From positions 460 to 64,459 of the forward strand of contig CAZRXG010000024.1 in NCBI GenBank assembly GCA_964603985.1: a stretch of 64,000 bases of DNA. The letters are read 5' to 3'. The position numbers and the translations under genes are program-made. Source of the stretch: an uncultured Anaerolineae bacterium (lineage in GTDB: Bacteria > Chloroflexota > Anaerolineae > Aggregatilineales > UBA3940). Below the pieces are notes generated by a model that did not search any database, was not told the origin of the DNA, and worked only from the letters and a program-made list of their open reading frames with translations. Positions 2,009 to 36,131 of this stretch are shown here, in pieces (position 1 is the first letter of the stretch; every line of letters begins with the position of its first letter).

Positions 2009-3190
2009 TCACGATCCCCAGGTGAACGTCCAGGCACGGCTCTGACCACCGACGGGCGGCGCGTTGGGGTTGCTGCCGCTGATGATGGCGATCCGCCACT
2101 CGTACTCGATGGAGTGACCGGGGCCGGGCTGGAGGTCGTCGGGGAGGCGGTAGGCGTTGCTGCGGGTGGTTGCTCTGAACTCCTCCTCGGTGGCGGTGTT
2201 TTGCACGATCACCAGATAGTACTGGTCGCCAGACAGCGGCTGCACGGCGGCCCACTGCAACACGACCCGCTGGTTGCGGGGGACGGTGCTATCGTCAGTC
2301 GGGGCGAGCAGCGAGGGCGGGCCGGGCGTTGGGGTGGGCGTGGCGGTCGAATCGGGGCCGCCGGTCGGCGTCAGGGTGGGGGTGCTGGTGATCAGGATGG
2401 GGACGTAGATCAGGTCGCCGATGCTGAGTATCGGGTCGGGGGGAAGATCGTTGGCCTGGAGGATGGCGTCAACGCGGGAGTAGTATGCCCAGGCAAGTCC
2501 GGCGACTGTGTCACCCTCGACCACCTCGTGAATCCAGTACTGCCCATCAGGCGAGACGCAGCGGTTATCGGGGCCGCAGCCGCTGTAGTCCCCGGATGCC
2601 TCCGGCGCAGCCGGTGCCGGTAACGTGCCCGTCTCCTCACCTTCACTTTCACCCTCACCCCCGCCTGCTACTTCGGTGGTCTGAGGCAAGGTGGTAGAGT
2701 GCAGTGTGGGCGTCGGGCCGGGGGTGGGCGTCTGGCGTGGGATCAGCAGAACCTGGCCTGCGTACAGGTCGGCCTCATTGGCCATGTCGTTCAGGCTCAG
2801 GATCTCAGGGACGACGACCAGTTCGCGGTAGCCGAAAAGCTGGATGATGTAGTAGAGCGTATCGCCCGCCTGAACGGTGTACTGGTACGGCTCAAGCGTC
2901 GCGGTAGCCGCCGGGGTGGGCGTGTCGGTGGGTGGGCCGGGCTGCGATGGGGTGGGCGATGTGGGCAAGGTGGGCGTAAGAGTGCGTGTGACGACCGGTG
3001 TGGCCTCCGCCACCGGCTGCTCGCCTTCCTCGCCACCACCGAAGAAGATGACGAGGCCGACGACCACGCCCACAATGACCAGAACGCCACCGATGATGAT
3101 GATCAGGGTGCGGCGATCAAACGAAGAGAAATCGAACTGAATCCTGGGTCCCATATGGCTTACCTGCTGCGCCCTATCGCCGGGCGGCAC
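2009..3190 (-). CDS. membrane-anchored LysM domain protein
   Basis: N-terminal TM (LIIIIGGVLVIVGVVVGLVIFF), Pro/Thr-rich linkers and two LysM-like repeats (YTVQAGDTLYYIIQLFGY..., HEVVEGDTVAGLAWAYYSRVDAILQANDL). Convergent with mutL. Confidence 0.8.
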   Translation of the reverse strand: MPPGDRAQQVSHMGPRIQFDFSSFDRRTLIIIIGGVLVIVGVVVGLVIFFGGGEEGEQPVAEATPVVTRTLTPTLPTSPTPSQPGPPTDTPTPAATATLEPYQYTVQAGDTLYYIIQLFGYRELVVVPEILSLNDMANEADLYAGQVLLIPRQTPTPGPTPTLHSTTLPQTTEVAGGGEGESEGEETGTLPAPAAPEASGDYSGCGPDNRCVSPDGQYWIHEVVEGDTVAGLAWAYYSRVDAILQANDLPPDPILSIGDLIYVPILITSTPTLTPTGGPDSTATPTPTPGPPSLLAPTDDSTVPRNQRVVLQWAAVQPLSGDQYYLVIVQNTATEEEFRATTRSNAYRLPDDLQPGPGHSIEYEWRIAIISGSNPNAPPVGGQSRAWTFTWGS

Positions 3191-21475: not shown

Positions 21476-22480
21476 TCACCCGGCCACTTCTGGTTGGCCG
21501 AACATCGCGTCGGCCACGCGTTTCAGCATGGGTACGCCGCGTACCTCGGTCTCGTAGAGCGGCACAATCGCCCGCACCAGCGCGCCAAAGGTCTCATCGA
21601 TCTCTTGCATGTACTCCTGCTGCATGGCGACGCGGTTGCGCACGAACTCCGGCGCATCGTCGCCAACGACCTCTTCCTCGATCTTCATGTTGACCACCAC
21701 CCCGCCGATCGGGATGCCGAACTCGGTGAACCAGTCGATGAAGCGGCGGATCACGGCGATGGGTAGTGCCTCCGGCAGGGTCACGAAGAAGAAAGCGGTC
21801 ATGGCGTCGTCGGTCAGGAGATCCTTGGCGTGGCCCATCCGGTCCTGGAAGGAGAGCAGGTAATCCATCAGCGGGTCTTTCTCCTGCTTCTTCTTGCTGT
21901 AAGAAAGACTGAGCCGCATCGCCTGGGCCTCTTCACGACTCTTCAGCATCTTGTTGACCCACAGCGAGTAGACGGATGACATCCCCAGCAGGCGCCGCGC
22001 GTTGGCGGTGGGGGCCGTGTCGAAGACGTACACCTCGTATTCGTCCTCAAACATCAGGTCGATCATGTTCTCAAACATGGCCGACTCTTCGAAGGCCGGG
22101 TTCATCGTGGCGCTCTCGACGAACTGCTCGGCCTGGGTGCGGATCTCCGCATATCTCAGGAACCAGTCGATCTTCTCGCGGATTTCGACCTTGCTCTTCT
22201 CGATGGTGTCTTTGGTGTCGATCTCGTAAGCCCACAGGTTATCGACACCCTCGATTGCAACGTGTCTGCCGAACACATTCTGGTCGAGCAGACCACTCAG
22301 GCTGTGGACCGGGTTGGTGCTGGCCAGCAGCGTACGGCGCCCGCGCTGGGCGAAACCCAGTGCAGCCGCGCCCGCCAGCACGGTCTTGCCAACGCCTCCC
22401 TTGCCACCGAAAAAGGTGTATTTGAGGCCGGGATGAGCCTCCACAAAATCGGTTACCGAATCGGTGATTTGCAGCGTCAT
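21476..22480 (-). CDS. ArsA/Get3-family P-loop ATPase (single domain), copy 1
   Basis: Deviant Walker A FFGGKGGVGKT. Switch II reads VFDTAPTANARRLL, where the family consensus is DTAPTGHT. Confidence 0.9.
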   Translation of the reverse strand: MTLQITDSVTDFVEAHPGLKYTFFGGKGGVGKTVLAGAAALGFAQRGRRTLLASTNPVHSLSGLLDQNVFGRHVAIEGVDNLWAYEIDTKDTIEKSKVEIREKIDWFLRYAEIRTQAEQFVESATMNPAFEESAMFENMIDLMFEDEYEVYVFDTAPTANARRLLGMSSVYSLWVNKMLKSREEAQAMRLSLSYSKKKQEKDPLMDYLLSFQDRMGHAKDLLTDDAMTAFFFVTLPEALPIAVIRRFIDWFTEFGIPIGGVVVNMKIEEEVVGDDAPEFVRNRVAMQQEYMQEIDETFGALVRAIVPLYETEVRGVPMLKRVADAMFGQPEVAG

Positions 22481-22558
22481 GGCTGTCCTCTCTTTAACGT
22501 CGTGTCAGATGGGTGGCGAGGTCACGCCAGGGTGTCACGGCGGCCCCGCTTATACCTG

Positions 22559-23536
22559 CTAGGTGCCGAACATGGCCTCCGCCATCCGTTCGATCATCTC
22601 CATGCCGGTGATGTCACGCTCAAATTCCGGAACGCGTGCCAGCACCTGGTCGCCGAACAGGTTGTCGATCTTCTCAAGGTATTCGCCCTGCATCTTATAG
22701 CGGCTGCGCAGGTAATCCGGCACCCCCGCCTCTGACATGATCAGGTCGGGTAGCACGCGGTTGACGATGTAACCTGAGAGTGGGACATCAAACTTCAAAA
22801 AGAGCTCGGCTGCATTCTGGGTGTCGATCAGGATCATCTCCTCTGGCACCAGTACAAAGAAGAAGGCGGTCTTGACCTTGTCGGTCAGGATGCTGGCCGA
22901 GGTGGAGATGCGATCCTTGATGTATTGGAGCTCGTTCAGGATCAGATCCTCATTGAGCTGCCTGCTGCGCTGGATCCGCGCCGCCATCTGCTCGTATTCG
23001 CGCATCTCTTCGCGCAGCCCGGTGATGCGGCCGATCCACTCGTCGTACACCGAGGCCATGCTCAGGTAGTAGAGCGCGTGGCCGAGCGGGACCAGATCGT
23101 AGATGTAGTAATCAAATCCCCCGGCCACGACGATGTCAACCACCTGGTCAAAGATGGCGCTCTCCTCCATGGCCGGTTCGGCGGCAGCCGCCTGGATGTA
23201 GCTCTCGATCTCGTCGGGAATCTTGTCCAGGTGGTACATGTCAAAGATCTTTTGGCGGATCTCCTCCTGGTACTCCTTGATCCGCTGGTCGGCGTCGATC
23301 TCCTGGGCATACAGGTTTGGGGCGATCTCAACCACGCCCTTGCCGAAGATGTCGCGCTGGAAGATGTCGGACAGCGATGCCTGTGGGTCCACCGAGAAGA
23401 CAAGTACACGGTGTCCCTGGGAAGCCAGATAATGCGCGGTGGCAGCGCTGAAGGTTGTTTTACCGAGGCCCCCCTTGCCGCCAAACATGATGTAGCGGCG
23501 TTCGGGGTGCTCCTCGAAGATTTTCGCCAGTGACAT
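22559..23536 (-). CDS. ArsA/Get3-family P-loop ATPase (single domain), copy 2, degenerate switch II
   Basis: Walker A MFGGKGGLGKT. Switch II is replaced by IYDLVPLGHALYYL. Collinear with copy 1 overall. Confidence 0.88.
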   Translation of the reverse strand: MSLAKIFEEHPERRYIMFGGKGGLGKTTFSAATAHYLASQGHRVLVFSVDPQASLSDIFQRDIFGKGVVEIAPNLYAQEIDADQRIKEYQEEIRQKIFDMYHLDKIPDEIESYIQAAAAEPAMEESAIFDQVVDIVVAGGFDYYIYDLVPLGHALYYLSMASVYDEWIGRITGLREEMREYEQMAARIQRSRQLNEDLILNELQYIKDRISTSASILTDKVKTAFFFVLVPEEMILIDTQNAAELFLKFDVPLSGYIVNRVLPDLIMSEAGVPDYLRSRYKMQGEYLEKIDNLFGDQVLARVPEFERDITGMEMIERMAEAMFGT

Positions 23537-25291: not shown

Positions 25292-27094
25292 CTAGTCGCC
25301 GGCCGCTGCCCCTGCTGGCGCTTCGGCCTGGGCCTTGTTGAAGGCCTTTAGAGCGTCGATGCCCAGCAGGATCGCTGCTACCGCCATGTAGAGGCCAAAC
25401 AGGGCCGAGATTGCGTTGCCGATGTAGAACACGACCCCCGTGCCAGGCTTGGCATTGACGATGCCCATGATCAGCGCGTTGCGGATGGACACCCACAGCA
25501 AGGCGGCTATGGTGGTCACGTACATGAAGATGGCCGGGATGCCCACCCAGGCGTGGCGCTTCTTCTGACCGGCCAGCCAGATGGTGACCAGCAGCAACGC
25601 CAGGCTCGCAAAGAGCTGGTTGGAGCCGCCGAACAGCACCCAGATCCACTGCCAGTAGCCCGTGAAGACGATGAGCAGTGTCAGCAGTAGGGCCACGATG
25701 CTGCCCACATGCGGGTTCTTGAGGGCCGGGATCGCGTCGCCCAGCAGTTCCGCGCTGGCAATGCGCATGAAGCGGACCACCAGCTGCATGATGGTGATGC
25801 CCATCACGACCAGGAAGATCGAACCTACCGCACTACCCAGGCTCGTGGGGACACCGACCACGTTCATGAAGCGGGCCATGCCGCCCGCGAACACCCCGGC
25901 GGCGCCGGCCACCAGCTTGTAGTCCTGGGCCGCGTCATAGATGGCGGTGCCGTCCGCTTTGGCGATCAGGGTCACGCCCATGATCAACGCCAGCACCGCC
26001 AACACACCCTCCAGGAACATCGCGCCGCCGCCCACCGGCAGGGTGTCGGTCTCCTTCTCAAGCTGGCGCGCCGTGCCTGAGGTGCTTACCAGGCTGTGCC
26101 AGCCCGAGATCGCGCCGCACGCAATGGTCACGAACAGGAGCGGCCACATTGGCCCCAGATGCGGCTGGTTGAACTTGACGTAGGCCGGGATCTTGAAGCT
26201 GGTGCTGACCGGGTCGGTGAAGGTGGCAATGGTGATGCCCAGTACCGAGAGCACCATGCTGATCGCCACGAACCAGAACGAGGTGTAGTTGACCGGCTGG
26301 GCGAAGCGCCAGATGGGCAGCACCGACCCCAGGTAGCAGAAGAGCATCATCATGATTGCCCAGAAGACGAAGCTCCACGTCACGGGAGCGCCGAACTGGG
26401 TCGCGTACAGGACGCCGCCCTCACCGCCCGCCAGGCCGTTGATCCAGGCCACGACACCGTTCGGGCCGGCGAAGAGCGGCAGCGTGCCCACCCAGGCGCC
26501 GACCAGCGCGATCAAGACGGTGATGACAGTCGTCAGCAGCAGGTCTTGCTTCCAGCGGTAGGTCATCTGCCCCGCCAGCACACCGGCCAGCACGATGATC
26601 AGGAAGCCGAAAGGCACCACCGGGTTAGCCAACAGGGGCGAGATGATGGCACCAAAGGCACCCATGATCAGCAGCAGGTAGATATACAGGAAGGACAGCA
26701 GCAGGCCGCGCGAGCGGGGCGAGATGAGCTTGTAGCTCAGGCCGCCCATCGTCATGCCCTCGTTGCGCATGGACAGCAGGGCTGATGCGTAGTCCTGCAC
26801 CCACCCGATGAAGAACGTGCCGATGATGATCCACAACAGCGCGGGCAGCCATCCGTACTGGAGGGCCGTGATCGGGCCAACGATCGGCCCCAGTGCTGCA
26901 ATTGACTTGAACTGATAGCCAAACAGCACACTGGCCGAGGCAGGCATGAAGTCCACGCCGTCCTGGTACATGGTGGCAGGCGTAGCACGCTCAGGATCCG
27001 CCTCCATGACATCGCGGTCCATCTTGCGTGCGTAGACCTGGTAGCCCACCACGAAGAGCAAGACTACTGAAATAACAAGAACAGCAAGTGACAT
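25292..27094 (-). CDS. cstA: carbon starvation protein A family transporter
   Basis: 600-aa polytopic membrane protein. N-terminal CstA signature (LFGYQFKSIAALGPIVGPITALQYGWLPALLWIIIGTFFIGWVQDY). Confidence 0.9.
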   Translation of the reverse strand: MSLAVLVISVVLLFVVGYQVYARKMDRDVMEADPERATPATMYQDGVDFMPASASVLFGYQFKSIAALGPIVGPITALQYGWLPALLWIIIGTFFIGWVQDYASALLSMRNEGMTMGGLSYKLISPRSRGLLLSFLYIYLLLIMGAFGAIISPLLANPVVPFGFLIIVLAGVLAGQMTYRWKQDLLLTTVITVLIALVGAWVGTLPLFAGPNGVVAWINGLAGGEGGVLYATQFGAPVTWSFVFWAIMMMLFCYLGSVLPIWRFAQPVNYTSFWFVAISMVLSVLGITIATFTDPVSTSFKIPAYVKFNQPHLGPMWPLLFVTIACGAISGWHSLVSTSGTARQLEKETDTLPVGGGAMFLEGVLAVLALIMGVTLIAKADGTAIYDAAQDYKLVAGAAGVFAGGMARFMNVVGVPTSLGSAVGSIFLVVMGITIMQLVVRFMRIASAELLGDAIPALKNPHVGSIVALLLTLLIVFTGYWQWIWVLFGGSNQLFASLALLLVTIWLAGQKKRHAWVGIPAIFMYVTTIAALLWVSIRNALIMGIVNAKPGTGVVFYIGNAISALFGLYMAVAAILLGIDALKAFNKAQAEAPAGAAAGD

Positions 27095-27563
27095 CGCTCT
27101 CTCTCCTTATATGATATGTTTAGGTGAGCAAAAGAGACTTCACGCATACGCGTGTTGATTATGAAGGGTCGATGTCTGCGTCAGCGATGAATGAAGCTGG
27201 ATGAAGCTGCGCGAATCCCCGCTAAGGGGGCGAGCCTCCTCACGAAGTGACAGGTCTCACCTCCTCTCCCACACCATAGTGTTGCACACGCAACAACCCA
27301 TCATATAAAACCCTGTTGACGGGTTGAGGATACGGTTATTCTTGATGTTGGTGATAATTATTCGACCAGGGTTGTTACAGGCCTGACCGCCAGGAGATAC
27401 CTCCATTGTACAAGAGGAAACGAAGCACGTAAAGACCATCTGGGCGAATGGAAGCATGAAAAAGTTGAGGAAAACCGCGAGATAGCTGTGAAGTACATTG
27501 AAGTGAGGCTGACGTACAGAACCTCTCCTCTACTTTCTCGTCCTGCCGAGTGAGTGCGTTCTT

Positions 27564-27592
27564 TTGACACGAGGCCATGATGGGGATATACT
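27564..27592 (+). promoter_or_regulatory. his operon promoter
   Basis: TTGACA (27564-27569), 17-nt spacer, TATACT (27587-27592). The predicted TSS is only a few nt before the leader ATG. Confidence 0.55.
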
Positions 27593-27601
27593 CCCTGCGC
27601 G

Positions 27602-27700
27602 ATGCTGAACAAAACTGTGTCTATCCACGTCCATCATCACCATCATCATGACGCCAATTGGCTGCTGGCCCGGTGGCGGCGATGGTGCTTGGCTGGATAA
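27602..27700 (+). CDS. hisL: histidine operon leader peptide
   Basis: 32-codon ORF MLNKTVSIHVHHHHHHDANWLLARWRRWCLAG, with 7 His in 8 consecutive codons (27626-27649). Too short for the ORF track. It sits between the promoter and a terminator, directly upstream of hisG. Confidence 0.7.
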   Translation: MLNKTVSIHVHHHHHHDANWLLARWRRWCLAG

Positions 27701-27740
27701 AAAGCATCAACGATACCAAAAAGTGACTGAGAGTTCACTG

Positions 27741-27770
27741 GCCTCCCCGGAGCAGCGGGGAGGCTTTTTT
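27741..27770 (+). terminator. rho-independent terminator (his attenuator)
   Basis: GCCTCCCCG (27741-27749) pairs with CGGGGAGGC (27756-27764) around a 6-nt loop, followed by TTTTTT (27765-27770). Located 31 nt before the hisG ATG. Confidence 0.7.
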
Positions 27771-27800
27771 GATTGATCGACAGGATCGGGAGAGTATGCT

Positions 27801-28820
27801 ATGGACTCCTCACCCCAGGTTCGGCTGGCACTGCCGAGTAAGGGCCACCTGGAAGACGAAACGTTCCGCTTCTTGAGAGACTGCGGTCTGCGAGTTAACA
27901 AGACCAACCCCCGCCAGTACAGCGCGCGCATCCCGGCCCTGCCGGAGGTGCTGGTGCTGTTCCAGCGCGCACGCGACATTGCTAAAAGCGTTGCCGCCGG
28001 GGATGTCGACCTGGGCATTACCGGCTACGATACGGTCTACGAGTCGCTGGGCGACGCATTCGACGAGGTTGTGCTGGTCCACGAGTCGCTGGGCTACGGG
28101 GAATGCGACCTGGTCGTGGCCGTACCCGACGAGTGGGACACGGTCGATGACCTGGCCGGACTGGCCGCCAGGGCAGAAAGCGAGAGAGGGCTTCGTGCCG
28201 CCACCAAGCACACCCATTCGGCGCGCCGTTTCTTCGATGAGCACGGAGTCGAAGGAATACGCATCGTCAGTGCGGACGGCGCGCTGGAGGCCGCCCCGAC
28301 GGTTGGCTATGCGGACTTCATCGTTGACATCACCACCACCGGCACGACGCTGCGGGATAACCATCTGAAGCCGCTGCCGGACGGCACCATTGTCGAGGCG
28401 CAGGCGGTGCTGATCGGCAACCGGGAGTCGCTTGAGCGCCGCCAGGCGGTGCTGTCCGCCACGTGCCACATGCTGGAATTCATCGAGGCCCACCTCCAGG
28501 CACGCGATAAATACCTGGTGTTTGCCAACATGCGGGGCGGGTCGGCGGAGGAAGTTGCCGGGCGCATGTTCACCCAGACCGAACTGGGCGGGCTGCAAGG
28601 CCCCACGATCTCGCCGATCATCTCCCCCTCACAGGAAGGCGGCTGGTGGGCGGTAAACATCGTGGTTTCGTCTGAGAAGCTGTACCGTGCCATCCAGCAG
28701 TTGCGCGCCATTGGCGGGAGCGGCGTGGTTGCGACCCCGGCCACCTACATTTTCGAGGAGCGCCCCGCCCGCTACCAGCGTCTGCTGGCCGACCTGGGCA
28801 AAGAGGAGATAAACGCATGA
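27801..28820 (+). CDS. hisG: ATP phosphoribosyltransferase, long form with C-terminal regulatory domain
   Basis: RLALPSKGHLEDETFRFL N-terminus, GITGYD, and a C-terminal HisG_C-like region. No hisZ is needed for a long-form enzyme. Confidence 0.92.
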   Translation: MDSSPQVRLALPSKGHLEDETFRFLRDCGLRVNKTNPRQYSARIPALPEVLVLFQRARDIAKSVAAGDVDLGITGYDTVYESLGDAFDEVVLVHESLGYGECDLVVAVPDEWDTVDDLAGLAARAESERGLRAATKHTHSARRFFDEHGVEGIRIVSADGALEAAPTVGYADFIVDITTTGTTLRDNHLKPLPDGTIVEAQAVLIGNRESLERRQAVLSATCHMLEFIEAHLQARDKYLVFANMRGGSAEEVAGRMFTQTELGGLQGPTISPIISPSQEGGWWAVNIVVSSEKLYRAIQQLRAIGGSGVVATPATYIFEERPARYQRLLADLGKEEINA

Positions 28821-30154
28821 GCGGTCTGCTGCGTATCTACGAACTCGAGGAAGCCCGGCAGGGCATCCTGCGGCGCGTTCCGCCCGACGAGCTTGAGGTG
28901 ACCGAAAGCGTCAGGAAAAGCATCGAGGCTATCTTCGGCGAGCCGCTGACGCCGGAGCAGGCGGTTCGACGGGTGATCGGCGACGTGCGGGCAGGCGGCG
29001 ACAACGCACTGCGCGCCTGGATGGAGCGCATCGACCGGGTGGCACTTGACGCGCTGTCCGCTTCGCCGGAGGAGATCACGGCGGGGGTTGAGGCCACACC
29101 GCCGGAGGTCATCGACGCGCTGAGACTGTCCGCACAGCGGATCGAGCGCTTCTACCGGCAGCAGCCGCTCACCTCATGGCTGGATGTGGGCGAAGAAGGC
29201 GTCCTGGGCCAGGTCATCCTGCCGGTTGACCGGGTGGGCGTTTACGTGCCGGGCGGCACCGCCCCGCTTCCATCCTCGCTGCTGATGAGCGCGATCCCCG
29301 CCCAGGTGGCCGGGGTTAAGGGGATCATCGCCTGCACGCCGCCGGGGCGCGATGGCTCGTTGCCGCCCGTGATTCTGGCGGCAGCGCACGTCGCCGGGGT
29401 CGAGCGGGTGTACAAGCTCGGCGGGGCGCAGGCCATCGCAGCGATGGCCTACGGCACCGAGAGCGTCCCCCGCGTGGACAAGATCGTCGGGCCGGGCAAC
29501 CTGTTCGTGACGCTCGCCAAGCGGCAGGTGTACGGCGCGGTGGGCATCGAGGGGCTGCTGGGGCCGACCGAGACGCTGATCATCGCCGACGAGCACGCCA
29601 ACCCGGCCTACGTCGCCGCCGACCTGCTGGCGCAGGCCGAGCACGACGTGCTGGCCCAGGCGATCCTCGTCACGCCCAGCCGCGACCTGGCAGGGGCAGT
29701 CGCCGCCGAGGTCGAGGCGCAGGCCGCCGACCTGAGCCGCAGGGCGATCTTCCGGGAGTCGCTGGCACACCGGGGCGGCGTGATCATCGTGCCCGACCTT
29801 GAGACCGCCTTCGATCTGGCCGACGAGTATGCCGCCGAACACCTGCAGCTCTCGGTCGAAGAGCCGTTCAACTGGCTGGGCAAGGTCAGGCATGCCGGTG
29901 CGATCTTCCTCGGTGAACACTCATTTGAGGTGCTGGGCGACTACGTGGCCGGGCCGAGCCACAGCCTGCCCACCGGCGGCACGGCCCGCTTTGCGTCAGG
30001 GCTGAACGTGCTGGACTTTGTCAAAGTGACGGGTGTGATCGGGTTGCAGCCGCAAACCACCGCCCGACTGAGCGCCCCGGCTGCCACGCTGGCCCGTGCC
30101 GAGGAATTGACGGCCCACGCCGCCGCCGCCGATGCGAGGAGTGAGGCCCAATGA
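28817..30154 (+). CDS. hisD: histidinol dehydrogenase
   Basis: 445 aa with the family blocks ([38 protein letters not shown]). ATGA overlap with hisG. Confidence 0.95.
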
Positions 30155-31275
30155 GTGATATAAAGCTCCACATCAAGGCAGCCGGGCTGGTCCGGGATGA
30201 CATCCTGCGGATGGAGCCTTATACGCCCATCCTGCCCTTCGAGGTGCTGAGCGAGCAGTTAGGCCGCCCGCCGGAGCAGATCGTCAAGCTGGACGCCAAC
30301 GAGAACCCCTACGGGCCATCCCCCAGGGCGCTGGCCGCGCTCAGGCAGATCGACGCCAGAGCGCCCATCTACCCCGACCCGGAGGCACGTAAGCTGCGCG
30401 CGATGCTGTCCGAATACCTGGGCGTCGATGCCGCGTATATTCTGGCCGGGGCGGGGGCCGACGAGCTGATCGACCTGATCATGCGGCTGTTCCTGAACCC
30501 CGGCGATGCCATCATCAACTGCCCACCGACCTTTGGCATGTACGCCTTCGACGCTGCACTGTCGGGGGCGCGGATGGTGAGCGTGCCGCGCCGGGCGGAT
30601 TTCACCCTCGACGTTGAGGGGATCGAGCAGGCGGCCTGCCGGGAGAACGCCAGGCTGCTGTTCGTCGCGACGCCCAACAATCCCGACGGCGGCCTACTCG
30701 ACCCCGCCGACCTGGATCGCCTGCTGAGGCTCCCATTGGTGGTGGTGGCCGACGAGGCTTACATTGAGTTCAGCGGCGCGGAGAGCGCAGTGCAGCGCGT
30801 CCCTGAAGCGCCCAACCTGATCGTGCTGCGCACCTTCAGCAAGTGGGCCGGGCTGGCCGGGCTGCGGGTCGGCTACGGCGTGTTCCCGCTGGCACTGATG
30901 GAGCACCTGTGGAAGATCAAGCAGCCGTACAACCTGAACGTCGCGGCGGACGCGGCAGCGCAGGCATCGCTGGCAGATTTATCCACGTTGCAGGCGCGCG
31001 TGCGGCAGGTGATCGCCGAGCGCGAGCGCCTGGAGCGCGAATTGGCAAACATCCCCTACCTGGAGCCCTACCCCAGCCGCAGCAACTTTGTGCTGTGCCG
31101 GGTGGTCGGCGTGGATGCCGCCCGGCTCAAGCGGCGGCTGGCCGAGGAGGAGGGCATCCTCATCCGGTACTTCGACAAGCCGGGGCTGCGCGACCACATC
31201 CGCATATCGGCGGGTAAGCCGGAGCACACCGACGCGCTGCTGGCCGCACTCAGGAGAATAGGAGCACAAGCATGA
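30151..31275 (+). CDS. hisC: histidinol-phosphate aminotransferase
   Basis: Class II aminotransferase pattern ([32 protein letters not shown]-Lys). ATGA overlap with hisD. Confidence 0.93.
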
Positions 31276-31868
31276 GCGAGCGCCGGGCAACGGTTAAACG
31301 GGTCACCAACGAGACGCAGATCGAGTTAACGCTCGATCTGGATGGGAGCGGCCAGGCTGACATCGACACGGGCGTCGGCTTCTTTGACCACATGCTGCAC
31401 CACGTGGCAGTGCACGGCCTGTTCGACCTGAGCGTCAGGGCCACCGGCGACCTGCACATCGACGCCCACCACACCGTCGAGGACGTGGCTATCGCCTTCG
31501 GGCAGGCGCTGGCGCAGGCGCTCGGCGACCGCAGGGGCATCGTGCGCATGGGGGCGACCTACGTCCCGATGGATGAGGCACTGGCGCGGGTGGTCATCGA
31601 CCTGAGTGGCCGTCCCTACGTGGTGATCGAGGCCACCTTCGACGCGCCGATGCTGGGCACCATGCCCACCTCGCTGGTGGCGCACGTCTTCGAGTCCATC
31701 GCCTTCAACGGGGAGCTGAACCTGCACGCTCACGTGCTCTATGGGCGCGACGATCACCACAAGGCGGAGGCATTGTTTAAGGCACTGGGACGCGCGCTGG
31801 ACGCTGCCACCCGGATCGACGGGCGGTGGGGCGGTATCCCCAGCACGAAAGGGACGCTGACGGCATGA
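31272..31868 (+). CDS. hisB: imidazoleglycerol-phosphate dehydratase (monofunctional)
   Basis: 198 aa with [11 protein letters not shown] and [14 protein letters not shown] motifs. There is no fused phosphatase domain. Confidence 0.95.
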
Positions 31869-32482
31869 CCATCGCAATCATTGACTACGGAGCCGGGAAC
31901 TTGCGCAGCGTGCGCAATACGCTGACCCACCTCGGCGTGCAGGTGATCACCGCCAGCACGCCCGACCAACTCGACGGCGCGGACAAGATCGTGCTGCCGG
32001 GCGTGGGCGCGTTCGGCGCGGGGATAGCCCGTCTGCGCGACGCGGGCTTTGAAGCACCTATCAGGACAGCCGTCGAGGCGGGCACGCCCCTGCTGGGCAT
32101 CTGCCTGGGGCTGCAATACCTTTTTGAGAGCAGCGACGAGATGGGCCTCCACGAGGGTTTGGGCCTGCTGCCGGGGTGCGTCACCCGTTTCCCGCCCGAC
32201 GGCCCCAAGGTGCCCCACATCGGCTGGAACGGGCTGCACATCCAATGCAACAGCCCCCTGCTGGCCGGTGTGCCGGACGGCGCGTATGCCTACTTCGTGC
32301 ATTCGTACTACGCCCGGCCCGACAACGCCGACAGCGTGCTTGCCACCACAGAGTACGGCATCGCCTTCGCCTCGGTGGTGGGGCAGGGCAATATCTTCGG
32401 CATCCAATGCCACCCGGAGAAGAGCCAGCGCGTCGGGCTGCGTATTCTCGAGAACTTCATCGAGATGGGCGGTGCATCATGA
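31865..32482 (+). CDS. hisH: imidazole glycerol phosphate synthase, glutamine amidotransferase subunit
   Basis: [24 protein letters not shown] (catalytic Cys) and QCHPEKS. ATG at 31865 overlaps the hisB stop (ATGA). Confidence 0.95.
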
Positions 32483-33210
32483 TCGTCTATCCTGCCATCG
32501 ACCTGCGCGGCGGGCGCGTCGTGCGGCTGGTTCAGGGCGACCCGGCGCGGGAAACCGTCCACAGCGACGACCCGCTGGCGACTGCGCAGCGCTGGCGAGA
32601 CGCCGGGGCCGGATGGCTGCACGTCATCAACCTGGACGGTGCACTGGGCGAGGCATCGTCGAACCTGGCGATCCTCTCACAGTTGGCACAGGTCGGGCTT
32701 CCGATCCAGTTCGGCGGCGGCCTGCGCTCGCCGGAGGATGCACAGCAGGCACTTGAGGCCGGGGCGGCGCGGGTCATACTTGGCACGCTGGCCGTGAGGC
32801 AGCCTGACGCGGCGGGCGAGGCTGTGAGGCACTTCGGTCCGGAGGCGGTGGCCGTCGCCCTCGACGCGCAAGGGAACAGAGTGGCGACGCACGGCTGGCA
32901 GGAACAAAGCGACTGGACGCCAGTCGGGCTGGGCAGACGCTTCGCAGATATGGGCGTCAGGCACGCGCTGTACACCGACATCAGCCGCGACGGCGGGCTG
33001 ACGGGCGTCAACGTCGAGGCGACGGCCCGACTGGCCCGCGAAACCGGCCTGAGCGTGATTGCGTCCGGGGGCGTTGCCTCGCTGGACGACGTGCGGGCGC
33101 TGGCGGCAGCAAAGGCCAGGATCGCCGGGGTGGTGATCGGCAAGGCGCTGTACACGGGAGCGTTCACGCTGGAGGACGCCATCCGCGCGAACTGCGAATC
33201 CGAAAACTGA
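32479..33210 (+). CDS. hisA: ProFAR isomerase
   Basis: [18 protein letters not shown]-terminus. ATG at 32479 overlaps the hisH stop. The upstream part of the track ORF (from 32176) is out-of-frame read-through of hisH. Confidence 0.93.
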   Translation: MIVYPAIDLRGGRVVRLVQGDPARETVHSDDPLATAQRWRDAGAGWLHVINLDGALGEASSNLAILSQLAQVGLPIQFGGGLRSPEDAQQALEAGAARVILGTLAVRQPDAAGEAVRHFGPEAVAVALDAQGNRVATHGWQEQSDWTPVGLGRRFADMGVRHALYTDISRDGGLTGVNVEATARLARETGLSVIASGGVASLDDVRALAAAKARIAGVVIGKALYTGAFTLEDAIRANCESEN

Positions 33211-33222
33211 GAGGAGACCATA

Positions 33223-33999
33223 ATGCTGGCAAAGCGCATCATACCCTGCCTGGACGTACACGCCGGGCGCGTGGTCAAGGGCGTCAACTTCGTCAACCTG
33301 CGTGACGCAGGCGACCCGGTTGAGCACGCCCAGGTCTACGATGCCGAGGGCGCGGACGAATTGACTTTCCTCGACATCACGGCCACCCACGAAGCCCGCG
33401 AGACCATGCTCGACGTGGTGCGTGGGGTGGCGGACTCGATCTTCATCCCCTTTGCGGTGGGCGGCGGCATCCGCAGCGTGGACGACATGCGTGATACGCT
33501 GCTGGCCGGTGCGGATAAAATCTCGATCAACAGCGCCGCCGTGCGCACCCCGGATCTGATCGCCGAGGGGGCGAAGCGCTTCGGCAGCCAGTGCATCGTG
33601 GTTGCCGTCGATGCCCGGTGGGACGGGTCGATGTACGAGGTGTACATCAACGGCGGGCGCATTCCGACCGGGATCGACGCGGTCGAGTGGGCCAAAGAAG
33701 TTGAGGCGCGGGGCGCGGGCGAGATCCTGCTGACCAGCATGGATCGCGACGGCACGCAGGTCGGTTACGAGCTGCGACTGACCCGCACCATCGCCGAGGC
33801 GGTTGACATCCCGGTGATCGCCTCTGGCGGCGCGGGCAAAAAAGAACACTTCTACGACGCGCTGACCGAGGGCAAAGCCGACGCAGCACTGGCCGCCAGC
33901 CTCTTTCACTTCCGCGACCTGAGCATTGGCGACCTGAAGTGCTACCTCATCGGGCGCGGCGTCCCGGTCAGGCCGTTTGAGGAGGCGTCGCTTGACTGA
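33223..33999 (+). CDS. hisF: imidazole glycerol phosphate synthase, cyclase subunit
   Basis: [12 protein letters not shown]..., [10 protein letters not shown] and SGGAG motifs. Confidence 0.95.
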
Positions 34000-34348
34000 A
34001 CGCATAGCCATCAAGTGGAACGCGCAGGGGCTTGCCCCGGCCATCGTGCAGGATGCCGACAGCGGCGAGGTGCTGATGATGGCCTGGATGAACGCCGAAT
34101 CGCTGCGCCAGACGCAGCAGACGGGCGAGACGCACTTCTGGAGTCGCAGCCGCCGGGAGCTGTGGCACAAAGGCGCGACCAGCGGTAACGTGCAGCAGGT
34201 GGTCAGCATCCACGTCGACTGCGACGCCGACACGCTGCTGGTCAGGGTGCATCCCGCCGGGCCTGCCTGCCACACCGGTGAGAGAAGCTGCTTCTTCCGC
34301 CAACTGCCCCCCGTCGGCGATGAGTCACCACCCCAGGAGGCCCAATGA
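33992..34348 (+). CDS. hisI: phosphoribosyl-AMP cyclohydrolase
   Basis: Blocks [25 protein letters not shown] and [21 protein letters not shown] at 33992 has a GAGGAGG SD 7 nt upstream and is preferred over the TTG at 33977. Confidence 0.88.
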
Positions 34349-34626
34349 CCGGTATACTGAGCCGGATTTTTGAAGTCATCAGGGACCGGCAGGCCAATCC
34401 AAAAGAGGGGTCGTACACCAATCGCCTCCTCGCAGCAGGCGAGGACGAGATCTTGAAGAAGATCGGCGAGGAGATCGCGGAGGTGATCGTCGCCGCCAAA
34501 GGGCAGGGCGACGAGCGGCTGGTCAGCGAGCTGGCCGATCTTGCCTATCACAGTCTGGTGCTGCTCGCGGCGCGCGGGCTGACGCCGGACGATGTTGCAG
34601 CCGAACTTGAAAGGCGGTTTAAATGA
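34345..34626 (+). CDS. hisE: phosphoribosyl-ATP pyrophosphatase
   Basis: 93 aa, MazG-like ([30 protein letters not shown]). ATGA overlap with hisI. Confidence 0.92.
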
Positions 34627-36131
34627 CACGTGCATTACTCAGCGTCTACGACAAATCCGGGTTGGTCGATTTTGCGCACAGCCTGAGTGAGCTTGGCGTC
34701 GAGCTGGTCGCCAGCGGCGGGACGGGGAACGCCCTGCGCGAGGCGGGCCTCGACGTGACGACGGTCGAAGACCTCACCGGCCTGCCGAGCGTGCTGGGCG
34801 GGCGCGTCAAGACACTCCACCCGGCAATACACGGCGGCATCCTGGCCCAGGAGACGGGCGACGACCGCGCCACGCTGGACGCGCAGGGCTGGTCACCCAT
34901 CGACCTGGTGGTCGTCAACCTGTACCCCTTCGTCGAAACGGTCTCCCGCCCCGGCGTCACCCTCGACCAGGCCGTCGAGCAGATCGACATCGGCGGCGTG
35001 GCGCTGATCCGCGCGGCGGCCAAGAACTTCGGGCGCGTGACGGTCGTCACCACACCGGACGACTACGACGCCGTGCTGTCCGAGTTCCAGGCACACGGCG
35101 ATACCACGCCGGAGGCGCGCCAACGGCTGGCCATGAAGGCGTTCGGCGTGACGGCGGCCTACGACGAGGCCATCACCGCCTACCTGACCGGCGAGGCGGA
35201 AGCTGCACTGCCGCAGGCATTGGCCCTCACGCTGCCGCAGGCGCAGGTTCTGCGCTACGGCGAGAACCCTCACCAGCAGGCCGCGCTTTACGCGCCGCCG
35301 GGCGTGGGGCCGCTGGGTGGCGACCTGCTCCAGGGCAAACCGCTGTCCTACAACAACCTGCTCGACCTCGATGCGGCCTGGACGGCAGCGGAGGACTTCG
35401 ACGCGCCGACGGTCGTGATCGTCAAGCACCTCAGCCCGTGCGGGATCGCCTGCGGCGACGACCTGGCCGCGACCTTTCGCGCCGCACTCGCCTCCGACCC
35501 GGTGTCGGCTTTCGGCGGGGTGATCGCCTGCAACCGGCCCTTCGACGAGACGATTGCCGGGGCGCTTGGCGACCTGTTCGTCGAGGCGATTGCCGCGCCG
35601 GGCTTCACCGACGCAGCCCGCGAGATTCTATCGGCGCGTAAGAACTGCCGCCTGCTCCAGATGATGCCGGAAGCCGATCGCGGCTACATCCTGCGCAGCG
35701 TGCGCGGCGGGCTGCTGGCCCAGACGCCTGACCGGGGTGACGTCGTTGAGTGGAAGGTTGTGACGCAGCGCGCCCCGACCGGCGAAGAAATGGCCGCCCT
35801 GCGCTTTGCGTGGTGGGTCGTGAAACACGTCAAGAGCAACGCCATCGTGTTCGCGCGCGGGCAGGCGACGGTTGGCATCGGCGGGGGGCTACCCAGCCGC
35901 GTCGATGCGGTGAAGCACGCCGCCTACAAGGCCGGGGAGCAGGCGCAGGGTGCGGTGATGGCATCGGACGCCTTCTTCCCCTTCCCCGATGGGCCAGAAG
36001 CCGCCGCCGAAGTTGGGATCACCGCCATTGTGCAGCCGGGCGGCTCGGTCCGCGACGAGCAGGTGATCGCCGCCGCCGACCGGCTGGGGCTGGCGATGTG
36101 CTTCACCGGGATGCGACACTTCCGCCACTAG
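34623..36131 (+). CDS. purH: bifunctional AICAR formyltransferase / IMP cyclohydrolase
   Basis: 502 aa with [29 protein letters not shown] and the C-terminal [13 protein letters not shown] overlap with hisE. Confidence 0.95.

Follow-up and report, generated by a model that had tools for sequence, protein, structure and literature searches.

A histidine biosynthesis (his) operon in an uncultured Anaerolineae bacterium is preceded by an element that we interpret, with a probability of roughly 80%, as a histidine-sensing, ribosome-mediated transcription attenuator acting on a leaderless or near-leaderless leader open reading frame (ORF). The operon lies in a 64,000-nucleotide (nt) stretch of contig CAZRXG010000024.1 (assembly GCA_964603985.1; G+C content ~65%), hereafter called the window. 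The anatomy of the element, its conservation in 32 related loci, and two alternative RNA pairings with a geometry that fits attenuation are observed in the sequences. An attenuator with such a start had been proposed in a preliminary description of the window; with the comparative evidence from the 32 loci and an antiterminator that competes with the terminator, which that description had not identified, it is the best-supported reading. The parts of the element and the genes that follow it are listed here, with the basis of each assignment in parentheses.

27564-27569 (+): -35 hexamer, TTGACA (sequence, consensus scan).
27587-27592 (+): -10 hexamer, TATACT, after a 17-nt spacer (sequence, consensus scan).
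27599-27602 (+): predicted transcription start zone, giving a 5' untranslated region (UTR) of 0-3 nt (spacing between the -10 hexamer and ATG, and lack of a Shine-Dalgarno, or SD, sequence).
27602-27700 (+): leader ORF, 32 codons and TAA, MLNKTVSIHVHHHHHHDANWLLARWRRWCLAG (sequence, translation, homologous mini-ORFs).
27626-27649 (+): regulatory His tract, CAC GTC CAT CAT CAC CAT CAT CAT, or region 1 (sequence).
27652-27678 (+): inner hairpin between regions 1 and 2 in the untranslated state, 27652-27656 with 27674-27678 and 27660-27663 with 27667-27670 (minimum free energy, or MFE, fold).
27662-27687 (+): region 2, in which GAUGGUG (27681-27687) pairs with 27638-27644 and 27662-27680 is the 5' strand of the antiterminator (folds, duplex).
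27683-27709 (+): local helix, 27683-27690 with 27702-27709, enclosed by the antiterminator (folds).
27722-27739 (+): small hairpin AGUGA/UCACU, 27722-27726 with 27735-27739 (fold).
27740-27770 (+): intrinsic terminator with a stem of 10 base pairs (bp), loop GAGCAG and a T-run (fold, terminator scan, alignment).
27741-27755 (+): region 3, the 5' arm and loop of the terminator, which form the 3' strand of the antiterminator, 14 bp with 27662-27680 (folds).
27788-27794 (+): SD of hisG, GGGAGAG (sequence).
27801-34626 (+): the operon under the predicted control, hisG (long form), D, C, B, H, A, F, I and E (NCBIfam equivalog hits).
34623-36131 (+): purH, whose start overlaps the hisE stop (ATGA, 34623-34626).

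Many of these parts had been named in the preliminary description, which listed a promoter TTGACA-17-TATACT (27564-27592), a 32-codon ORF with seven His in eight codons, the small hairpin, a strong terminator with T6 located 31 nt before hisG, pairing of CACCATC (27638-27644) with GATGGTG (27681-27687), an ATG close behind the -10 hexamer without an SD, and a long-form HisG. Each is borne out: the promoter by its sequence and the consensus scan (11 of 12 positions match), the ORF and the position of its ATG by the sequence, the hairpin and the pairing by the MFE fold, the terminator by a stem at 27740-27765, and the form of HisG by its HisG_C domain.

Homologous loci were collected through HisG by scanning one genome per species and by a metagenome scan with a four-sequence HisG alignment, which gave 65 loci. 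In the genome scan, the best match (61% identity) came from a metagenome-assembled genome of Aggregatilinea sp., which is placed in Chloroflexota, class Anaerolineae. The set of loci that carry the element comprises 33 members, namely the window and 32 relatives (3 from genomes and 29 from metagenomes) in or near Anaerolineae, with HisG proteins that are 55-76% identical. Single-sequence folds with a masked ribosome were made for 31 sequences, and the terminator, swap, 1:2-duplex and geometry tests were carried out on 27.

The His tract of the leader ORF ends 152 nt before hisG, and six consecutive CAY codons (27632-27649) occur once in the window, against 0.00 expected. A poly-His mini-ORF precedes hisG in all 32 relatives, and there the promoter-proximal ATG and the His run share a frame in every case. 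Across the 33 loci, the leader peptides are 17-33 amino acids long and contain 4-7 His residues, often as HAHAHHHH. Outside the His run, which is the only conserved part, the peptides are unrelated (e.g., MNTQAQFHAHHHGITPG and MVTHLSRPHHHHHHHLSSG), and apparent C-terminal motifs such as RRSGG and RPGG arise from translation of CGGUCCGGUGG, an RNA segment that is itself conserved. The element therefore has the short ORF typical of attenuators, enriched in codons for the end product of the operon and conserved across relatives solely in those codons, and, as in leaders of the His_leader type, the tandem His codons stand in a leader peptide immediately upstream of the his operon.

Variation within the run is limited to CAC and CAT. 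The window leader has five CAT and two CAC codons, compared to 3 CAT and 54 CAC in seven genes of the window, and over all 31 leaders the counts are 88 CAT and 78 CAC, an enrichment of the rare codon CAT. Such a preference could make decoding slower, or the need to pair with GGUGAUGG could be its cause.

As a composite pattern, the promoter occurs once in the 64-kb window, against 0.02 occurrences expected by chance. The -35 hexamer TTGACA is found at the same place in 32 of 32 related loci (as TTGACG in one lineage), the spacer is 17 nt long (18 in a few loci), and the -10 hexamer is TATACT or TATATT, or, in loci L003 and L004, TATGCT or TATTCT. The ATG follows the -10 hexamer after 7 nt in 24 of the 33 loci and after 9-10 nt in the other nine, which include the window (exactly 9 nt, CCCTGCGCG). 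Neither the window nor any of the 32 relatives has an SD before this ATG. Because most genes in the window carry an SD, including hisG, D, C, B and F, the leader ORF is, as far as its sequence tells, exceptional for its host. A -10 element directly upstream of a start codon that lacks an SD is the arrangement of leaderless genes, and promoter-to-start spacing of this kind is the signature used to call them (PMC3160421).

At the other end of the element, the terminator stem consists of 10 pairs (8 of them G-C) closed by a 6-nt loop and followed by T6, 31 nt before the hisG start at 27801; the SD of hisG is located outside the hairpin. Across 27 sequences, the stem is 94.6% paired, with compensatory changes at six pairs, and RNAalifold returned the terminator alone from the full alignment. 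An intrinsic terminator (a GC-rich hairpin with a U-run) follows the ORF in all related loci, as is characteristic of attenuators. The small hairpin in front of it forms whether the RNA is folded in the terminated or in the antiterminated state; the relatives do not conserve its sequence, although many of them have some hairpin in the same spacer.

In the MFE fold of 27595-27780 (z = -2.7 relative to shuffles), CACCAUC at 27638-27644 is paired with GAUGGUG at 27681-27687, together with the small hairpin and the terminator. The energy of this 1:2 duplex beats that of composition shuffles in 22 of 27 sequences (mean z of -2.5; -3.55 in the window). Both the MFE fold and the duplex energies thus have the regulatory codons paired with the antiterminator 5' strand, which is the arrangement of an anti-antiterminator. 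Hairpins comparable to the inner hairpin (27652-27678) occur in relatives, and it may act as a pause hairpin.

The alternative to this state is a pairing of region 2 with region 3. To represent a stalled ribosome, the RNA was masked to 10 nt past the last His codon and folded up to the terminator loop, that is, with the 3' arm not yet made. Under these conditions, the window forms an antiterminator (27662-27680 with 27741-27755; -32.5 kcal/mol) that is mutually exclusive with the terminator, and the antiterminator is recovered in nearly all 31 sequences (-20 to -37 kcal/mol). Moving the ribosome to the stop codon gives folds of -2 to -5 kcal/mol for most sequences (a few reach -24) and leaves the 5' arm of the terminator essentially free. 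In nearly all 31 sequences, region 2 in the form CGG-U-CCGG-U-GG pairs with CC-U-CCGG-U-CCG, which is made up of the terminator 5' arm and loop. The atypical loop of the window, GAGCAG, is matched by an upstream CUGCU, as the UCCG loop of the relatives is by an upstream CGG.

Three comparisons bear on this 2:3 helix. Specifically, its nine core pairs were counted on two MAFFT alignments, neither of which had been fitted to the structure, and were found to be 89.2% and 89.4% paired in register; when the partner strand was slid by at least one column, pairing reached at most 77% and at most 68%, respectively. On both alignments, the helix has a covariation score that beats 500 of 500 shuffles, with the changes on both sides concentrated in three pairs that involve the terminator loop. 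Finally, cognate combinations of regions 2 and 3 are more stable than swapped ones (permutation P-value = 0.0008), and for each of the four sequences that diverge most (those of the window, L003, L004 and L040) the cognate pair takes first place among the 27.

The spacing of these parts conforms to that of an attenuator. The core of region 2 begins a median 22 nt after the last His codon, with 25 of 27 sequences falling between 16 and 25 nt, which is just past a ribosome footprint, and a ribosome stalled on the His tract would therefore leave region 2 free. In the same 27 sequences, the stop codon falls in one of two places, 4-7 nt ahead of region 2 or 7-33 nt beyond the point where region 2 begins, so that an unstalled ribosome would always occupy region 2 while region 3 is being made. 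Region 2 is thus placed to be free in the stalled state and covered in the unstalled one.

From these observations we infer the following mechanism. RNA polymerase would start at the near-consensus promoter, 0-3 nt ahead of the AUG, and a ribosome would load on this 5'-terminal AUG without an SD and trail the polymerase. When His-tRNA is scarce, the ribosome would stall on 27626-27649, covering both the inner hairpin and region 1, and 27662-27680 in region 2 would be available to pair with 27741-27755 as soon as the latter is made; the terminator would be blocked, and hisGDCBHAFIE (and probably purH) would be transcribed. When His-tRNA is plentiful, the ribosome would pass region 2 and reach the stop codon at 27698. 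After its passage, or if the leader is not translated, region 1 would pair again with region 2, and the terminator with its U-run (27740-27770) would end transcription 31 nt before hisG.

Several results weigh against this interpretation. De novo RNAalifold, applied to an alignment ending before the 3' arm, returned no pairs and hence no consensus antiterminator, and for that reason the case for the antiterminator is built on the single-sequence folds and the counts made for the named structure. Being invariant, the CCGG/GG core of the 2:3 helix gives no covariation signal, and on alignment A3 the number of 2:3 pairs in which both sides have changed is not significant (201 of 500 shuffles). 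When the G-rich region 2 is replaced by shuffles of matched composition, pairing with the C-rich arm is on average about as good (-16.3 versus -17.5 kcal/mol); what supports the specificity of the 2:3 pairing is the swap test together with the register test. The column-based covariation test of the 1:2 pairing is also not significant (62% paired, 53 of 500 shuffles), because the pairing register differs between subgroups. Overall, the covariation evidence for the alternative helices is modest. In the full transcript, moreover, the antiterminator state is less stable than the terminator state (-37.3 versus -45.1 kcal/mol), and antitermination must therefore come about kinetically, as in classic attenuators.

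The remaining difficulties concern the start of the leader. Predicted leaderless genes are rare in Chloroflexi (~4.7% of genes, in 4/12 genomes where any were detected; PMC3160421), and with the 9-nt gap of the window a 5' UTR of 1-3 nt appears as likely as a strictly leaderless start. Both the scarcity of such genes and a gap longer than the usual 7 nt would also suit the same attenuator on an ORF that is not leaderless, transcribed from a start further upstream (a second promoter-like site was detected at 27088-27115 by the consensus scan) or translated by SD-independent internal initiation on a longer 5' UTR. We consider this unlikely, as a near-consensus promoter with an ATG 7-10 nt behind it recurs in 33 of 33 loci, the gap contains no SD-like sequence although most genes in the window have clear SDs, and the spacing is the very signature by which leaderless genes are called.

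It could also be argued that the terminator and the accompanying RNA structure are constitutive or regulated in another way (e.g., by a bound protein or tRNA), with the His ORF untranslated and its CAY codons retained for pairing with GGUGAUGG. Third-position C/U changes in the His codons keep G-C/G-U pairing too, so that CAC/CAT variation alone is no proof of translation, and the modest covariation of the alternative helices is compatible with such a view. Nevertheless, all 33 loci retain the ATG, the frame and an in-frame stop codon that stands in a fixed relation to region 2, while the flanking codons are free to change, and the element always precedes hisG. A known RNA regulator was likewise not detected. 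Rfam was scanned at gathering cut-offs in the window, 16 relatives that bear the leader and 10 that lack it, and by E-value over 27450-27850 and 27080-27600. The scans gave a sub-threshold match to the enterobacterial His_leader family (RF00514) and no other family: the window scores 19.7 bits (E = 0.55) compared to a gathering score of 49 and is not a member, and none of the 16 leader-bearing relatives reaches the cut-off. The T-box leader is the other known RNA control of his genes; it had no match in the window at the gathering cut-off, none at E <= 10 over 27450-27850, and none in the related loci scanned. With no Rfam family, T-box included, matching the window or the 26 related loci, we attach very little weight to this explanation. 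A functional small peptide rich in His (for instance, a metal-binding one) as the product of the mini-ORF, with the hairpin directly behind the ORF merely its terminator, is scarcely plausible, given that neither sequence nor length is conserved outside the His run, that the C-terminal motifs are translations of an RNA segment, and that the element is always found directly ahead of hisG, reading in the same direction, without a separate promoter in between.

The element, as a predicted leaderless or near-leaderless attenuator, is compared here with its closest known counterparts. With the enterobacterial his leader (hisL, RF00514) it shares a short His-codon ORF upstream of hisG, the selection by a stalled ribosome between an antiterminator and an intrinsic terminator (which is predicted here), the gene order hisGDCBHAFIE and a long-form HisG. 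The enteric leader has a six-segment (A-F) topology and an ORF translated from an SD. In contrast, the element described here has no detectable homology to it, no SD before the leader ORF, and four segments (1:2, 2:3 and 3:4) instead of six, with an antiterminator that uses the terminator loop. The label "Enterobacterial-style" in the preliminary description is thus apt for the mechanism, but not for the family or for the layout, which resembles that of trp. The Escherichia coli trp leader has its regulatory codons in region 1, and its pairings 1:2, 2:3 and 3:4 serve as anti-antiterminator, antiterminator and terminator, respectively. The same four-region logic applies here, and in five related loci the stop codon is located just before region 2, as in trpL. 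Differences from the trp leader are the amino acid, the predicted leaderless start, and the position of the stop codon in most members, including the window, where the ORF extends across region 2 to a stop codon 23-33 nt past it.

Leaderless leaders and non-enteric His leaders each have precedents. The ilvBNC attenuator of Corynebacterium glutamicum encodes a leader peptide on a leaderless mRNA and is described by a three-hairpin model that acts through transcription termination (PMC11857589). It shares with our element the (here predicted) leaderless leader, the anti-antiterminator/antiterminator/terminator model and control by termination, but it belongs to Actinomycetota, responds to Ile/Val/Leu, and has no sequence relationship to the element. 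Mycobacterial polycysteine small ORFs, which are leaderless and sense Cys by acting translationally (bioRxiv 10.1101/834739; PMC4633059), are similar in being unannotated, leaderless, and placed with a run of codons for one amino acid upstream of the matching biosynthetic genes; here, however, the conserved intrinsic terminator, with the hisG SD outside the hairpin, points to transcriptional control. Candidate His-leader attenuators outside RF00514, with 3-5 His codons, have been predicted in the Bacillus cereus group, Peptostreptococcaceae and Erysipelotrichales of the Firmicutes (PMC9413887). Like our element, they are lineage-specific and were recognized by the same comparative logic of a terminator and an antiterminator; they are from another phylum and are not described as leaderless in PMC9413887. 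Occurrence outside Proteobacteria, which the preliminary description considered unusual, is thus uncommon but precedented, and leaderless initiation, the combination with which was also considered unusual, is known for leader ORFs in Actinobacteria (PMC11857589; bioRxiv 10.1101/834739). We found no report of a his attenuator in Chloroflexi in the open-access literature.

The enteric gene order noted in the preliminary description is present, with differences in the genes themselves. Specifically, hisB (31272-31868, +) encodes a protein of 198 amino acids with imidazoleglycerol-phosphate (IGP) dehydratase alone and no phosphatase domain, hisI and hisE (33977-34626, +) are separate, overlapping genes and not a fused hisIE, and purH is appended. 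Judging from the overlap of its start with the hisE stop, purH is probably co-transcribed with the his operon as a tenth gene. Its presence there makes metabolic sense, because HisH/HisF release 5-aminoimidazole-4-carboxamide ribonucleotide (AICAR), the substrate of PurH.

Upstream of the his promoter, an unassigned stretch of ~470 nt (27095-27563) with a lower G+C content of ~58% separates it from a divergent cstA-like gene (25292-27094, minus strand). This stretch contains a small palindrome (27141-27154) and the promoter-like site at 27088-27115, and has no Rfam match. Upstream of the cstA-like gene are two adjacent, paralogous ATPases of the GET3/ArsA family (21476-23536, minus strand; 334 and 325 amino acids). 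Elsewhere in the window, we found no convincing regulatory mini-ORF or promoter-fused ATG and no other His-rich mini-ORF with a promoter. A 408-codon ORF at 3190 (minus strand) has a TATACT 6 nt before its GTG start, no SD and a weak -35 hexamer, and is a weak candidate for a possible second leaderless gene.

Among the other loci collected, no His mini-ORF was found upstream of hisG in L041-L044, L046 and L049 (HisG identity of ~50-59%) or in the Dehalococcoidia loci L006-L013, whose HisG proteins are 41-43% identical. In its place, these loci carry a short 5' UTR, conserved in part and without an Rfam match, and a strong promoter-like site (TTGACA...TACAAT/TAGAAT or TTTACT...TAGAAT). Two loci with the leader are of separate note. 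In L048, which is additional to the 33, the contig starts within the leader (1-241), leaving a truncated copy in which region 2 and the terminator are present, and ~150 nt that are absent from the other loci lie between the terminator and hisG. L004 (JAAYTY010000183.1) is a 5.6-kb contig binned as "Candidatus Fermentibacteria", with hisG and a leader design nearly as in L003 and the Anaerolineae group; the contig is probably mis-binned or the product of a transfer.

In summary, the element is real, well supported and uncatalogued, and it belongs to a known type of system without introducing a new mechanism. Going by the sequences, it is about an even bet that the element represents an uncatalogued family of strictly leaderless His-leader attenuators, spread across an Anaerolineae clade and evolved independently of the proteobacterial his leader. 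If so, the 5'-terminal AUG would be bound by a 70S ribosome upon leaving RNA polymerase, obligatory transcription-translation coupling in Chloroflexota would become directly testable, and "promoter-fused" sensory ORFs would be suggested as a general design outside Actinobacteria. On the reading that we prefer, ribosome-mediated amino-acid attenuation, in its leaderless form, would be extended to Chloroflexota. The 33 diverse examples are a seed for a new RNA family, and the element annotates the regulation of the his operon in many environmental Anaerolineae genomes. It also offers a natural system for asking about transcription-translation coupling in Chloroflexota and about the regulatory role of leaderless initiation.

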